From Candidatus Methanomethylophilaceae archaeon (GTDB lineage Archaea; Thermoplasmatota; Thermoplasmata; Methanomassiliicoccales; Methanomethylophilaceae): a DNA stretch of 64,000 nt. The stretch is taken from contig CALUHR010000013.1 of assembly GCA_944320495.1 (NCBI GenBank), positions 160,001 through 224,000 on the forward strand, given 5' to 3'. Position numbers and translations under genes: made by a program. Positions 29,806-34,700 of the stretch are shown here, in pieces. Each line of letters opens with the position of its first letter. Position 1 is the first letter of the stretch. The notes beneath the pieces were generated by a model. It worked only from the letters and a program-made list of their open reading frames with translations. It searched no databases and was not told the origin of the DNA.

Positions 29806-30222
29806 TCGGAGCCTCTTCCGCATCATCACGTGCGGACAGTACTCGTCGAGGTACTCGTCGCCGAACGCCTCGTACCCCAGCGTTTCGTAGAACCCCTTTG
29901 CGCGGACCTGAGCGGAGAGCAGCGATTCCCTGAACCCCATGGACCGGGCCACGTCCTCGGCCTCGGTCACCACCGCAGAGCCTATGCCCCTGCCGCGGTA
30001 CTCCCTGACCACGGCGATCCTGCCTATGTGGCATTCGCCGCCCTCTCCGGGGATGATGCGGCAGACAGCGACGGGGACGTCTCCGTCATAGAGTACGATG
30101 TGCTTCGAGATCGCGTCGTCATCGTCGAACTCGACCACGAAGCCCTGCTCCTCGACGAATACGTCGGTGCGTATGCGGACCTCGTCGTCGGAGATCGAAT
30201 CGGACACGACCGGGCGGAGCAT
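29806..30222 (-). CDS. GNAT N-acetyltransferase (ElaA/YjcF-like)
   Basis: IRTDVFVEEQG, IGRIAVVREYRGRGIG, AQVRAKGFYETLGY, HVMMRKRL then CGA at 29806-29808; standard stop at 29788. Confidence 0.9.
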
Positions 30223-30344
30223 CGCAGGGGCCTCCTCGCCATGATGCGTGGTTGTCCGTCCTCGGGGTGCTCCTCCTCGAACACCGCCCCGCGCGTGGCT
30301 TCGGAATCCGGAGTTGTGGCAGAAGGCGTCTCGAAACGGAACAT
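30222..30344 (-). CDS. Possible 40-aa ORF ending in a CGATG overlap with the GNAT start
   Basis: MFRFETPSATTPDSEATRGAVFEEEHPEDGQPRIMARRPL-CGA; no recognised motif. Confidence 0.25.
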
Positions 30345-30484
30345 GGAATCACAGAATCAGGGGTATGAAGGTGGGCCCGCCCAGATTTGAACTGGAGTTA
30401 CGTGCACCCCAAGCACGAAGGATACCAAGCTACCCCACGGGCCCACTGAAAGGGTGGAACGGGTTTTGAATTAAAAGGTTATGC

Positions 30485-30502
30485 CTCGGGCCGGAGCCCG
30501 AG
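30485..30502 (-). terminator. Hairpin after rpoN
   Basis: CTCGGGC-CGGA-GCCCGAG; on the minus strand it is followed by ATAACCTTTT. Confidence 0.5.
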
Positions 30503-30512
30503 GGAGGGGAGA

Positions 30513-30704
30513 TCATCCCAGAGGGGCGATCTCCTTGATGAGGTCGGCATGTGAGACGATCATCCTGCGGCAGCAGTACCTCTCGAATCCGAGGTCGTCG
30601 AGGACGGCTTTCGGATCCTCGCCCTGCCTGACGCGCTCTATGTAGACGGGGTAGGCGGAGCCTACGACCTTTCCGCATGTAAAGCACCTGACCGGTATTA
30701 TCAT
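30513..30704 (-). CDS. rpoN: RNA polymerase subunit N (Rpo10)
   Basis: [12 protein letters not shown]...RYCCRRM. Confidence 0.97.
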
Positions 30705-30716
30705 GCCACCATCTCC

Positions 30717-31118
30717 TCAACGGTAGGACTTCTGCTTCTTGGCGCGGGCGCCGGGACCCATGGGGTTCTTGGGCAGCTTCCTCCTGTCGTCGTTAATCAG
30801 GAGGGTCCTGTCGTAGGCCCTGAAGATCGCCTCGAGCTCGTCGTCCTTGTAGAAGTCGACGAGGCCCCTGGCGATGGCGGTCCTGGCTGCTGCTGCCTGG
30901 CCCATGACTCCGCCGCCGTTGACGGTGACGGAGATGTCGACCTTCTCGGCCCTCTCGGGAACGAGTCCCAGAGGCTCCTCGATCTTGAGCCTGGCCAGCT
31001 CGGGGGTGAAGACCTCGATGGGGACCTTGTTGATGGTCACCCTGCCGGTGCCCTCCTTGACGACGGCCCTTGCGATGGCGGTCTTCCTCTTTCCGCTAGT
31101 GTTCACGCAGTCAACCAT
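30717..31118 (-). CDS. rps9: 30S ribosomal protein S9
   Basis: GKRKTAIAR, GGGVMGQAAAARTAIA, GARAKKQKSYR. Confidence 0.97.
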   Translation of the reverse strand: MVDCVNTSGKRKTAIARAVVKEGTGRVTINKVPIEVFTPELARLKIEEPLGLVPERAEKVDISVTVNGGGVMGQAAAARTAIARGLVDFYKDDELEAIFRAYDRTLLINDDRRKLPKNPMGPGARAKKQKSYR

Positions 31119-31122
31119 GGGA

Positions 31123-31548
31123 TCATCTCACGTTGGAACCCAGGAATTTGGAAACGGCTCCCAGGGTCGTGTACTTGCCGGTGATCTTCCTGCAGGCGTC
31201 CGTGGGCCTCTCCTTCTCGCAGTCCTGGAACTGCTTGGGGGTGCCGACGAACACGTGGAGCCTCCTGTAGGCCTCCCTGCCGGAGGTGGTGTTCCAGGGG
31301 ATCATTCCCCTGACGCACCTCTTGAACAGGAGATCCGCCCTGCGGGGGTAGAAGGGTCCCTTCCTCTTGGTGGTGTCTCCGCGGTCGACCTTGGCCTTGT
31401 ACGCGGCGAACACCTTGTCCTTGACGCCGGTGATGACGATGGCCTCGGCGTTCAGGACGACGATCTCCTCGCCATCCATGATCCTCTCGGCGACCACGCT
31501 GGCCAGCCTTCCGTGGATCAGGTTCCTTCCGTCGATTACTGTAACCAT
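31123..31548 (-). CDS. rpl13: 50S ribosomal protein L13
   Basis: IDGRNLIHGRLAS, VLNAE, GPFYPRR. Confidence 0.96.
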   Translation of the reverse strand: MVTVIDGRNLIHGRLASVVAERIMDGEEIVVLNAEAIVITGVKDKVFAAYKAKVDRGDTTKRKGPFYPRRADLLFKRCVRGMIPWNTTSGREAYRRLHVFVGTPKQFQDCEKERPTDACRKITGKYTTLGAVSKFLGSNVR

Positions 31549-31553
31549 TCGAA

Positions 31554-31913
31554 TCACCTCATGATCCTGACGCCGGTTCCCTTGGGGTTGGCCTCGGCCA
31601 GCTCCTCGATGGTCAGCGTCTTTCCGCCCGCGGCCTCGATGGCCTTGGCTGCAGCGTCCGAGAAGTCGTACGCGGCGACGGTGATCTTCTTGCTAATCGT
31701 GCCTGCGGCGAGAACTTTGCCCGGAACGAGGATGGTCTCCCCGTCCTGTGCATACCTCTCAAGTTTGCTGAGGTTCGCTTCGGCCCAGTTCCTCTTGGGT
31801 TTCTCGAGCCGGAGCGCTACATCTCGCCAGATGGCAGCTTCAGTCTCCCTCGTCTTCGCCTTGAGGTTGTCGATCAGGGCGATGAGCTGAGGATTAGTCT
31901 TAAAGCTCCTCAT
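31554..31913 (-). CDS. rpl18e: 50S ribosomal protein L18e
   Basis: KTNP, VPGKVL, KITVAAYDFS.AA..I..AGG. Confidence 0.96.
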   Translation of the reverse strand: MRSFKTNPQLIALIDNLKAKTRETEAAIWRDVALRLEKPKRNWAEANLSKLERYAQDGETILVPGKVLAAGTISKKITVAAYDFSDAAAKAIEAAGGKTLTIEELAEANPKGTGVRIMR

Positions 31914-31960
31914 ATTTCTGACTCTCCCGATGTCTCGGTAATTCGCGCGTATACGGGAGT

Positions 31961-31970
31961 CACTTATAAA
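31961..31970 (-). promoter_or_regulatory. Putative TATA box of the rpl18e operon
   Basis: TTTATAAGTG on the minus strand about 50 nt upstream of the rpl18e ATG, in GC-rich surroundings. Confidence 0.55.
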
Positions 31971-31985
31971 GGTATGCCGAACCCG

Positions 31986-32342
31986 TCGGCGAAGGCCGAC
32001 CTGCTCCTTCCACAGCCGCCTCGCCGTGATGTTTCCGTAGAGCCACAGCACGAACATCGCGAACACCATCAGGAATCCCGGGAGCGAATCCACACGGACC
32101 CCCATGGAACCGGGCTCGCTGTATCCGTACAGCGCTACCACGAGGACCAGGAGTATGACGCTCGGTATGAACACCTTCAGACCGCGGTCCCTGTCGCCAA
32201 GGTACACGAGGCCCATTCCCGGAAGGACCAGTGACAGTATCATCGCGACCACCTCGCTCTTGCCGCCGTCGACCCAGGTCCCGCATGACGGGCAACGGTG
32301 CAGATTGCTGGGTATCTCGGCTCCGCATTCCCTGCAATACAT
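31986..32342 (-). CDS. Zinc-ribbon plus TM2-like membrane protein (118 aa)
   Basis: MYCRECGAE..CPSCG, ILSLVLPGMGLVYLG, two further hydrophobic segments; CGA at 31986-31988; under the standard code it reads through into rpl18e. Confidence 0.82.
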
Positions 32343-32621
32343 CGCATCCCCATCTACGTATGGTTGCCGGGGGAATTAAATACATATGGGGGGCCAGATG
32401 TCCTGTCCCCCGATATGGACGGGGCGGCCTATGTGTTGGTGCCTGGTCCAAACGGAACAGGTCGTGCATCCTGTTCCGGACATGATGCCATCGTGTGTAT
32501 CCTCACAGGGATGATGCGCAGATGACTTCCGTACATCCGGAATTGATACGATGGGTGCAAAAACGCCCGAATCCTATTCTCATGAACGTTCGGACACAGC
32601 GCCGTGGAAGCGTTTGGGACC

Positions 32622-32644
32622 GCGAGGGGTGCAGACCCCCTCGC
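32622..32644 (-). terminator. Hairpin after ilvE
   Basis: GCGAGGGGT-GCAG-ACCCCCTCGC, 10 nt past the stop. Confidence 0.4.
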
Positions 32645-32654
32645 AGGTCCAGGA

Positions 32655-33584
32655 TCAGTTGACGTAGTACAGCCAGGACTCGTACTGGGGGTCCTTGCCG
32701 GTGGCGATGTCGCGGAACTTGTTGTGGATCCTGGTGGCGACCTCGCCGATCTTGCCCTCGCCGACGGGCTTGCCGTCGATCATGGTGACGGGGGCGATCT
32801 CCGCGGCGGTTCCAGTCATCCAGACCTCCTCGGAGGACATCAGCATGAACCTGGAGACGGGGCACTCGTCGACCTCGTAGCCCATGTCCCTGGCGACCTT
32901 GATGATGGAGTCCCTGGTTATGCCCTCGAGGATGCTCTCGGCGACGGACGGGGTGATGATCTTCCCGTGGCGGTACATGAAGATGTTCTCCCCGGTGCAC
33001 TCCGCGACGTGTCCGACGGAGTTGAGCATGACGGCCTCGTTGGCACCCTGCCTGACGGCCTCCCTCTTGGCGAGGGTGGAGGCGACGTAGGACCCGTTGA
33101 CCTTGGCCCCGGCGGGTCCGCACAGGTTGTCGGGCCTCTGCCACGAGGAGGTGATGAGCTTGGCTCCGGCGGAGGTGGACGGTCCGAGGTAGTCCCCCAT
33201 GTGGATGCAGGTGATCGCGAAGGACGCGGGGACGCCGACTGGGTTGAGGCCGACCTCCTCTCCGCTGAGGAAGACGCAGGGCTTGACGTAGTCGACGGTG
33301 TCGCCGTTGGCGCGGACGGCATCGCGGATGGCGTCCATGACGTCCTGGAGCCCGTACTCCTTGCCGTCGAAGACGAGGTCGATGCCCATGATCCTGCATC
33401 CGTCGAGGAGCCTCTGGGCGTGCTCCTTGAGCCTGAAGATGGCCATGCCCTTGGGGGTGTGGTAGACCCTGATCCCCTCGAACACGCCGGTCCCGTAGTT
33501 GAGGGCGTGTGCGAGGACGTGGACCTTGGCGTCCTCCCAGTTGACGAGCTTGCCGTTCAGCCAGATCTTCTCGGTCTTGTCCAT
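32655..33584 (-). CDS. ilvE: Branched-chain amino acid aminotransferase
   Basis: HALNYGTGVFEGIR, AKVNGSY, ECTGENIF, ILEGITR, TGTAAEI. Confidence 0.96.
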   Translation of the reverse strand: MDKTEKIWLNGKLVNWEDAKVHVLAHALNYGTGVFEGIRVYHTPKGMAIFRLKEHAQRLLDGCRIMGIDLVFDGKEYGLQDVMDAIRDAVRANGDTVDYVKPCVFLSGEEVGLNPVGVPASFAITCIHMGDYLGPSTSAGAKLITSSWQRPDNLCGPAGAKVNGSYVASTLAKREAVRQGANEAVMLNSVGHVAECTGENIFMYRHGKIITPSVAESILEGITRDSIIKVARDMGYEVDECPVSRFMLMSSEEVWMTGTAAEIAPVTMIDGKPVGEGKIGEVATRIHNKFRDIATGKDPQYESWLYYVN

Positions 33585-33668
33585 GGAAAATCACCGTTCG
33601 AAGCGCGTTCGGCGCCTTTAGTGTTCACACGCGCACGCGAATCGGTGTATATACACGTTTTCGGAGCT

Positions 33669-34700
33669 TCGCTCGCGGAGAATCGCGTCCACCGCATCGG
33701 AGAACGGGACATCCCCGCCGACGCGGAATGTGCGGCACCCCAGACGGCGACCGAACTCCATGTCGGAGTCGCTGTCGCCGACCATCCACGACCTGGACGG
33801 GTCTATGCCGTACCTGGCCATGGCGGCGAGCCCCATGCCTATCTCCGGCTTGCGGCACGAGCAGTTCTCGTCCGGCCGGTGGGGGCAGTAGAAGATGTCG
33901 TCGATGCGCCCGCCCCCGGCCTCGACGGTGCGCCGGAGCTTGGAGTGGATGGCATCGAGGGTCGCGAGGTCGAAGTAGCCGCGGTTGAGCCCGGACTGGT
34001 TGGTTATCACTATGACCAGGTATCCTGCGCGGTTGAGCCTGGCGATCGCCTCCGGGACGTCGGGGTAGACCTCGAACTTGTCCGGGTCGTCGCAGTAGGG
34101 GACGTTCCTGGCGACGGTGTCGTCCCTGTCGATGAATACGGCTCGGCTGCCGAAGAGCTCCCTCTCGACGATGCCGGCCACGATGTGGCAGGCGCAGAGG
34201 TAGCCCTCCTGGACGTGGGGGGTCTCGGTGGTGGGGATGACGACCGCGTGGTCCGCGATCTCCCTCATCTTCCCGCAGTCGCCGGTGAAGGCGATGGTCA
34301 CGCCTCCGCGGGCCTTGGCCTCCTCCATCGCGAGGATCACGTTCTTGGAGTTGCCGGATGTGGAGAGCCCGACGAGGACGTCCCCCTTCCTGCAGATCCC
34401 CTCGACCTGCCTCTTGAACACGATGTCGTAGCTGTAGTCGTTCCCGATGGCGGTCACGGGGGCGATGTTGGACAGGCACACGCCGGGGAGCGCGGGACGC
34501 TCCATCATGTACCTGCCGGAGAACTCGGCGGCGATGTGCTGCGCGTCTGCGGACGAACCGCCGTTGCCGCAGAATATGACCTGATTGCCGTTGCGGAACG
34601 CATCCCTGATGATGTCCGCAGCTTTCCTGATCTGGGCGGGATCGATCGCGGAGATCGCCGCAGCCGCCTTCCCAAGCTCCGCCGTAATCGCGTCAGTCAT
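33669..34700 (-). CDS. gmhA: Fused phosphoheptose isomerase (GmhA) / heptose-bisphosphate phosphatase (GmhB)
   Basis: CGNGGSSADAQH, GNDYSY, STSGNS, HVQE; then DRDDT, ITNQSG, CPH..C.CRKP, MVGD; CGA at 33669-33671; standard stop at 33618. Confidence 0.92.

Follow-up and report, generated by a model that had tools for sequence, protein, structure and literature searches.

CGA as a probable leaky stop codon in a gut Methanomethylophilaceae archaeon, illustrated at the ribosomal protein L18e locus

Changes of the genetic code in which a sense codon has become a stop are known from organelles: AGA and AGG in vertebrate mitochondria, UCA in Scenedesmus, and UUA in Thraustochytrium mitochondria (NCBI tables 2, 22, and 23). 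In these codes, the sense codon vanishes from gene interiors and replaces standard stops at gene ends. Here we describe a similar behavior of CGA in a Candidatus Methanomethylophilaceae archaeon (assembly GCA_944320495.1, hereafter G000), taking as a starting point a 262-codon open reading frame (ORF) in a window of 64,000 nucleotides (contig CALUHR010000013.1, positions 160,001 to 224,000) that joins a Zn-ribbon-like membrane protein to ribosomal protein L18e. We consider it about 80% probable that this ORF is a standard-code artefact made of two genes split by CGA, and that CGA is a leaky, context-dependent stop throughout the genome. The evidence is comparative genomics throughout and draws, among other genomes, on G000, a complete congeneric genome (G008), and a genome of an outgroup family (G024). 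While the organellar codes belong to tiny genomes that have lost the cognate tRNA, this is a free-living archaeon with ~1,800 genes, in which a damaged cognate tRNA and three conserved sense CGAs are kept.

The ambiguous codes of ciliates and trypanosomatids (Condylostoma, Blastocrithidia) are similar in having a codon of dual meaning, whose reading depends on context and on competition between a tRNA and a release factor. Further shared features are an anticodon stem of only 4 bp in the tRNA (literature cited in PMC13092985) and changes near the decoding motifs of the release factor. The direction differs, as stops became sense in those eukaryotes, whereas here a sense codon would have become mostly a stop, in archaea and with aRF1. 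Among prokaryotic codons, the CGN codons for arginine change their meaning most readily (PMC8629427; KACI preprint, bioRxiv 10.64898/2026.04.02.715157). The unassigned CGG of Mycoplasma capricolum and the Codetta and KACI arginine reassignments resemble the present case in that loss or weakening of a tRNA precedes the change of meaning, but they are sense-to-sense changes or unassigned codons. The KACI preprint speculates that CGA might be a stop in two hydrothermal-vent archaea; these are without tRNA(UCG), whereas here that tRNA is retained. No description of CGA termination in gut Methanomethylophilaceae was found in the literature searched, and the searched passages of PMC8629427 and of the KACI preprint do not mention this clade. 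Yeast eRF1, a class I release factor of the eukaryotic/archaeal type, is reported to terminate at slowly decoded CGA (PMC7379694), although in yeast this is a low-level error or rescue event and not a genome-wide way of ending genes. Such termination gives a plausible origin for a CGA stop.

Two genes in one 262-codon reading frame

All genes and codons of the window described here lie on the minus strand (−). Under table 11, the frame at 31554..32342 runs through 262 codons without a stop. It begins with a 118-codon gene (31989..32342), whose product has a CxxC...CxxC motif at the N terminus and, by hydropathy, three transmembrane segments. There follow an in-frame CGA at codon 119 (31986..31988, context CGC CGA CGG), which we propose as the terminator of this gene; 24 linker codons (31914..31985), which homology to the DNA upstream of L18e in relatives identifies as non-coding L18e promoter and 5′ leader; and the complete L18e (eL18) gene of 119 codons plus TGA (31554..31913), with its ATG at 31913 and its TGA at 31556-31554. 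A reading made earlier from the sequence alone had drawn the same layout, and its coordinates hold, including those of the in-frame CGA at 31988-31986, of TTTATAAGTG in the linker at 31970-31961, and of the L18e ATG. It had also taken this CGA for the sole candidate terminator, which fails: a further in-frame CGA, codon 136 of the fused ORF, lies inside the L18e leader (31935..31937), and another is codon 30 of L18e itself (31824..31826, in a W-R-D context), which, to judge from its conservation across the order, must be decoded as sense. The terminator, leader, and sense CGAs all fall inside 165 bases, and the most informative feature of the locus is that one transcript region holds both a terminator CGA and, at a distance of 165 bases, a sense CGA.

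Coding signals end at the first CGA. The GC content at codon positions 1, 2, and 3 is 0.62, 0.42, and 0.81 in the Zn-ribbon gene and 0.50 at each position in the linker, which thus lacks codon bias. A homolog on a metagenome contig (L051) is 62% identical to the Zn-ribbon gene, with 34, 20, and 60 differences at the three codon positions; both this substitution pattern and the GC3 signal (GC at codon position 3) cease at the CGA at 31988-31986, after which L051 has a 6-nucleotide indel. The CGA itself is invariant in four independent assemblies (the window, G018, L051, and L052) despite diverged flanking coding sequence. Apart from G000, only the near-twin genome G018 and three metagenome contigs of close relatives were found to carry the gene, with CGA present in all of them.

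The protein had been labeled Zn-ribbon/TM2. Its CxxC...CxxC motif is visible, but the zinc ribbon at residues 2 to 22 (Zn_Ribbon_1, PF13240) scores 21 bits, under the Pfam cut-off of 25, and no TM2 domain was matched in Pfam at E ≤ 0.01 anywhere in the 262-residue ORF; the product would be named only “Zn-ribbon-like and membrane-bound”. In G018 and several metagenome variants, the gene is frameshifted (window ~32080-32140; L001; P0003-P0005), in one case at a run of five G residues (ATGGGGGTC). Since the frameshifted copies give products of 90 to 93 residues, the gene looks dispensable or phase-variable.

To characterize the linker, L18e was located in 20 relatives and the upstream DNA was compared. 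The elements ACCTTTATA(A/T), GTATA, TTACC, and ATGTCGGGAGAGTCAGAAA-ATG precede L18e, in this order, in 20 to 28 genomes, and are shared by genomes in which an unrelated gene, or one on the opposite strand, lies upstream; the corresponding TATA box of the window is TTTATAAG (31970-31963). The motif TACCGA, which holds the leader CGA, is conserved in the L18e leaders of several relatives. In both L051 and L052, a 1-nucleotide insertion just 5′ of the L18e ATG places the Zn-ribbon gene and L18e in different frames, so that their in-frame arrangement in the window is an accident. The homologous leaders and this insertion bear out the earlier proposal that the two halves are separate genes and that the linker is the promoter and leader of L18e. 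A natural Zn-ribbon-L18e fusion is disfavored by the out-of-frame copies and by a linker shared with genomes that have no Zn-ribbon gene. Gene callers using table 11 yield artefacts of 149 and 157 residues in L051 and L052.

We propose that the 118-residue Zn-ribbon protein would be translated as far as the CGA at 31988-31986, where most ribosomes would terminate. The conserved promoter, consisting of a B recognition element (BRE) and TATA box, and the ~30-nucleotide leader would begin eight bases past this codon, and L18e would be made from its own ATG at 31913. The leader CGA, 17 codons downstream, would catch most of the read-through of the first.

CGA at gene ends and in gene interiors

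The G000 assembly comprises 1.77 Mb of high-GC DNA in 14 contigs, and we examined 999 long ORFs in which GC3 was 0.8 or higher. Owing to the high GC content, a frame filter based on G and purine content at codon position 1 let off-frame ORFs through, and the GC3 filter and ortholog tests were used instead. Within this set, the frequency of CGA is 0.6 per 1,000 codons in the region 100 to 150 codons before the ORF end but 14.6 per 1,000 in the last five codons, a 24-fold difference that is not due to chance and has no parallel among other rare codons. In ORFs with CGA in their second half, GC3 drops from 0.87 to 0.68 past the first such codon, and the tail that remains has a median length of 19 codons; eleven rare codons used as controls show no drop in GC3 and have median tails of ~100 codons. 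When CGA is counted as a fourth stop, 744 ORFs end in TGA, 203 in CGA, 33 in TAA, and 19 in TAG, so that CGA would end ~20% of the genes.

Comparison with relatives places these CGAs at the expected ends of proteins. Against proteins from 320 kb of G024, 51,531 aligned G000 codons hold only 11 CGAs, among which that of the aRF1 gene is the only truly interior one, the rest falling in antisense frames, where alignments break off, or where genes probably end. In 33 of 182 genes with G024 orthologs, the first stop to follow the homologous region is CGA, which misses the expected C terminus by a median of 2 codons; the next standard stop misses it by a median of 39. The more closely related G008 gives the same picture for 112 CGA-ended G000 genes, whose G008 orthologs have TGA (101), TAA (8), TAG (1), or CGA (2) at the same place. 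The offset of the G008 stop has a median of 0, with 84% within 3 codons, compared with 89% for the TGA-ended control. Homology between G000 and G008 spans a CGA only in aRF1 and L18e; the fused gene for GmhA and GmhB (GmhAB, see below) has no G008 ortholog.

The context of the codon is also distinctive. U follows terminator CGA in 57% of cases and A in 5%, versus 30% and 22% after TGA, while the sense CGAs are followed by C in aRF1 and by G in L18e and GmhAB. A further in-frame TGA, TAA, TAG, or CGA occurs within 5 codons in 39% of cases after CGA versus 24% after TGA. We propose that, within the genus, CGA has been purged from gene interiors and acts as a fourth terminator, its use as a stop having arisen mostly by TGA-to-CGA drift and having reached ~20% of genes in this high-GC species. 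The L18e locus would be a good example, at one site, of an unpublished code variant that extends through the genome.

Several further observations were made on gene ends. CGA is followed by TCG, forming the palindrome CGATCG, at 29 of the 203 terminator sites. It is also often followed by TG, giving CGATG, in which a downstream ATG could overlap CGA as it does in TGATG. TAG is the first in-frame stop of 11 G000 ORFs, and for 10 of these the corresponding G008 codon is TAG too, in agreement with conserved TAG sites for either pyrrolysine or stop; a tRNA-Pyl gene is present in G008 at 1290439-1290509. G000 resembles Methanoprimaticola: the nearest records that bear a name are those of Candidatus Methanoprimaticola (hominis Mx06 and sp. 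MG2) and metagenome-assembled genomes of gut Methanomethylophilaceae.

tRNA-Arg(UCG), aRF1, and CGAs read as sense

A tRNA with anticodon UCG is kept in G000 (C13:413317-413390), in G008 (C1:762581-762657), and in 12 more genomes of the genus. In the subclade of G000, its genes encode tRNAs of 73 to 75 nucleotides with a short D loop and a 4-nucleotide variable loop, and the 31:39 pair is broken (A.A, C.A, or U.C) in 13 of 13. Because the four pairs above this mismatch covary, the gene is under selection, yet it has an anticodon stem of only 4 bp. The G008 tRNA has a different defect: its loop, CCUCGAC, has C33 instead of the near-universal U33, and the 27:43 pair is mismatched as well. C33 and the T arm also caused this gene to be missed by DNA search and loop pattern, and it was found by running ARAGORN on the whole genome. 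Three outgroup genomes have canonical tRNA(UCG) loops and a C31-G39 pair. There are thus two different anticodon-arm lesions inside one genus.

The aRF1 gene of G000, which lies outside the window (C2:85933-87402, −), contains exactly one CGA. This is codon 77, for the conserved arginine of the RLK segment after the NIKS motif, and it is the single CGA of the gene in all 17 genus genomes (L021-L037). All 12 outgroup genes have another arginine codon at this position, and their CGAs are scattered over other arginine positions, which shows CGA to be, on these sequence grounds, plain arginine outside the genus. Three amino acid changes in aRF1 are fixed in the genus, S to A just before SNIKS, R to M after it, and T to A just before YxCxxxF; NIKS itself is unchanged. 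The single CGA possibly provides feedback on the release factor of the kind known for RF2, whose gene, prfB, likewise bears one conserved copy of the stop codon that its own product reads, in that case an in-frame UGA. RF2 autoregulation works by +1 frameshifting, whereas bypass here would be plain decoding by tRNA-Arg(UCG), and we infer the feedback from the conserved codon.

In the scheme that we favor, the retained tRNA-Arg(UCG) with its weakened anticodon arm would compete with aRF1 at CGA, and because of this competition three conserved CGAs would be read as sense: codon 30 of L18e, codon 77 of aRF1, and a codon at the GmhA/GmhB junction. A leaky, context-dependent stop set by kinetic competition between a weak tRNA and aRF1 fits the data. 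The sequences show where coding signals end and orthologs stop, the homology of the promoters, the frame shift in relatives, and the features of the tRNA and aRF1; from these we infer release by aRF1, a weak tRNA, and efficient read-through at the three sites.

L18e had been described as normal. It is full-length: Ribosomal_L18 (PF17135) matches ORF residues 148 to 262 with 39.9 bits, above the cut-off of 28, and of the protein proper (ORF residues 144 to 262), residues 2 to 119 give end-to-end alignments with free-standing archaeal eL18 of known structure, in chains of 116 to 126 residues (E = 8e-36). What that description had missed is its own codon 30, which is CGA in 16 of 17 genus genomes and all 11 outgroup genomes, that is, in 27 of 28 of the order, while codon choice at the other arginine positions varies. 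The alignment of the G000 and G008 proteins runs through this codon, CGA in G008 too, and the surrounding 15-mer ATCTGGCGAGACATT is identical in eight outgroup genomes of very different GC content.

Codon 30 forms part of a predicted long-range RNA pairing between leader and ORF. The leader half (31918..31934) consists of GACAUC, GGGAGA, which resembles a Shine-Dalgarno (SD) sequence and lies in an internal loop, and GUCAG; the ORF half, identified by pairing and covariation, consists of CUGGC, GA, and GAUGUA, corresponding to L18e codons 29 to 32 (31818..31830). The C of the CGA is paired, and its G and A lie in the internal loop opposite the SD-like GGGAGA. Across relatives the helices take forms such as AAUGUC with GACAUU and GUCAG with CUGGC, which are conserved across Methanomassiliicoccales (L229-L274). 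On 28 sequences, 96% of cells are paired, versus 24 to 39% with slid partners, and two adjacent pairs show compensatory change (G-C to A-U and U-A to C-G), with G.U and U.G intermediates present. Among 80 further loci, 46 of the 47 carrying the leader motif have CGA, and additional intermediates are seen, for example AACGUC with GAUGUU; loci without the motif, including those of Methanomicrobiales, often have CGC, AGG, or CGT, although several still have CGA. A scan of 30000-34000 against Rfam gave nothing relevant, only a sub-threshold CRISPR-DR match, and Rfam has no entry for this element, which we regard as a candidate ribosomal-protein operon regulator. The internal loop of GGGAGA against GA can be drawn as a 4-nucleotide bulge followed by tandem G.A/A.G pairs, the canonical kink-turn having a 3-nucleotide bulge; both the kink-turn-like drawing and an autoregulatory role are speculation.

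L18e is the first gene of an L18e-L13-S9-RpoN cluster. The L13 ORF, as listed, opens with the GTG at 31557, and its third codon is CGA (31546-31557). The true start is probably the ATG at 31548, directly after the L18e TGA, and CGA there would again mark non-coding sequence. Some contigs that carry the archaeal L18e operon are filed as Bacteroidaceae, Lachnospiraceae, Bacteroides ovatus, Prevotella hominis, or Bifidobacteriaceae (L237-L239, L242, L245, and L246) and are probably mis-binned.

The third conserved sense CGA lies in another gene of the window, identified by Pfam and by its relatives, that fuses GmhA (SIS) to GmhB (HAD phosphatase) at 33672..34700. This gene is read as ending at a codon-344 CGA (33669..33671), matching the place where relatives have their stops: they end GmhB with TGA or TAA 0 to 4 codons from this CGA, and two other genus members have CGA there. 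The sequence-only reading had pointed to this CGA near the gene end and to a standard-code tail that crosses the palindrome GTGTATATACAC near ilvE. Both are present, and the tail then reaches TAA, although the palindrome lies at 33645-33656, one base off the position first given. The agreement of the GmhB end with the canonical stops of relatives supports that case for a CGA stop, but the sequence-only reading had missed an in-frame CGA at the junction of the two domains (34143..34145; loci L197-L215). Among 17 genus loci covering the junction codon, 13 have CGA, 2 have another arginine codon, and G017 has TAG. G005 and G007 have TAA at the junction, and G005 carries the two genes in separate frames. 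Three outgroups cover the position; in these the protein is a true fusion, and the codon is sense for K or P. As no ATG, GTG, or TTG occurs in the window between the junction CGA and the catalytic DxD motif, the phosphatase domain would be made only by reading through this CGA, and the junction looks like a tuned read-through point. An additional CGA is found in G011 within the DxD motif region (FVD-CGA-DD).

The claim that CGA is a stop therefore stands in part. The coding signal ends at the CGA of the Zn-ribbon gene and the codon behaves as a terminator genome-wide, but, given the CGAs at L18e codon 30, the GmhA/GmhB junction, and aRF1 and the retained tRNA(UCG), it cannot be a plain stop.

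Competing explanations and implications

Several results weigh against the proposal. A gene for tRNA-Arg(UCG) persists under selection, and CGA has to be decoded in L18e, aRF1, and GmhAB, which means that CGA is not a clean stop. The earlier reading had looked to synteny in relatives for two separate genes divided by a canonical stop; no such case exists, as the five Zn-ribbon homologs found are confined to close relatives and all have CGA at the 31988-31986 site. The base after this CGA is C and not the favored U, and read-through may therefore be appreciable; read-through past both CGAs may yield some fusion protein in G000. In addition, G008 has purged CGA from gene interiors but ends only ~1% of its genes with it, and because it hardly uses CGA as a stop, it would go too far to say that the entire genus stops at CGA; a genus-wide capacity for such termination is presumed.

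This last feature looks like an “unassigned” stage, and the chief competitor of an evolved stop is that CGA is unassigned or very slowly decoded, with stalled ribosomes being rescued and genes still effectively ending at CGA. Rescue could proceed through Pelota/ABCE1 and peptidyl-tRNA hydrolase, or through near-cognate misreading by an unmodified aRF1, as yeast eRF1 can misread a slow CGA as a stop (PMC7379694). Two distinct lesions of the anticodon arm of tRNA(UCG) and the unchanged NIKS motif would agree with this. Rescue at 20% of gene ends would, however, come at a high cost; the U favored after CGA and the aRF1 substitutions that the genus has next to the decoding motifs point to termination by a factor; and the single aRF1 CGA conserved in 17 of 17 genomes fits a release-factor feedback loop, so that we regard stalling as unlikely. 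We give considerably less credit still to CGA as an ordinary rare arginine codon, with the Zn-ribbon protein truly fused to L18e across the promoter and the other CGA tails tolerated as extensions. The frame is indeed open under table 11, a tRNA(UCG) exists, and CGA is decoded in L18e, aRF1, and GmhAB, but the two genes are out of frame in L051 and L052, the linker is a conserved promoter and leader without codon bias, and ~200 genes would need random tails, some of more than 100 codons, running through neighboring genes. CGA is, moreover, absent from conserved columns, and orthologs stop exactly at its position.

Two explanations would leave the code itself unchanged. Editing of mRNA from C to U, turning gene-end CGA into UGA with interior CGAs escaping, is in accord with CGA and TGA being one transition apart, with orthologous stops being mostly TGA, and with the enrichment of CGAU. 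It leaves unexplained the interior purge of CGA, the altered tRNA(UCG), and the conserved aRF1 CGA; to our knowledge, no such editing system is known in archaea, and we consider editing highly improbable. Least probable of all is that faulty assembly or base calling has turned TGA stops into CGA, for instance where a CGATCG motif is modified. That motif is found at 29 of 203 sites, but at the Zn-ribbon/L18e locus the agreement of four independent assemblies, from different studies, on CGA at the identical site excludes such an error, the codon recurs at the GmhA/GmhB junction in 13 genus loci, and neither the interior purge nor the tRNA changes are error patterns.

A more elaborate form of the leaky-stop proposal, to which we give slightly less than an even chance, is that the dual meaning of CGA is balanced by aRF1's own CGA, with programmed read-through at the GmhA/GmhB junction and at L18e codon 30. 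A deliberately weakened tRNA-Arg(UCG) facing a modified aRF1 would then set the efficiency of CGA as a stop. Read-through at the junction would give either GmhA alone or a bifunctional enzyme, and the L18e CGA, locked by an RNA structure common to the order, may belong to an autoregulatory switch of ribosomal protein synthesis.

For these methanogens, which are common in the human and animal gut, annotation under the standard code yields hundreds of wrong proteins in the form of false fusions, C-terminal tails, and swallowed promoters, and such errors spread to protein databases, as with clusters P0001 and P0002. The Zn-ribbon-L18e product with its HTFISDSRIRANYR linker is one such false fusion, and its locus offers a compact test bed for a terminator, a leader, and a sense CGA. 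Confirmation would make this the first genetic code of a free-living cell in which a sense codon has turned into a stop. The change would, moreover, be caught in an ambiguous state, in which a tRNA, a release factor, and a few read-through sites still interact, and the “ambiguous intermediate” route of code evolution would become directly testable.

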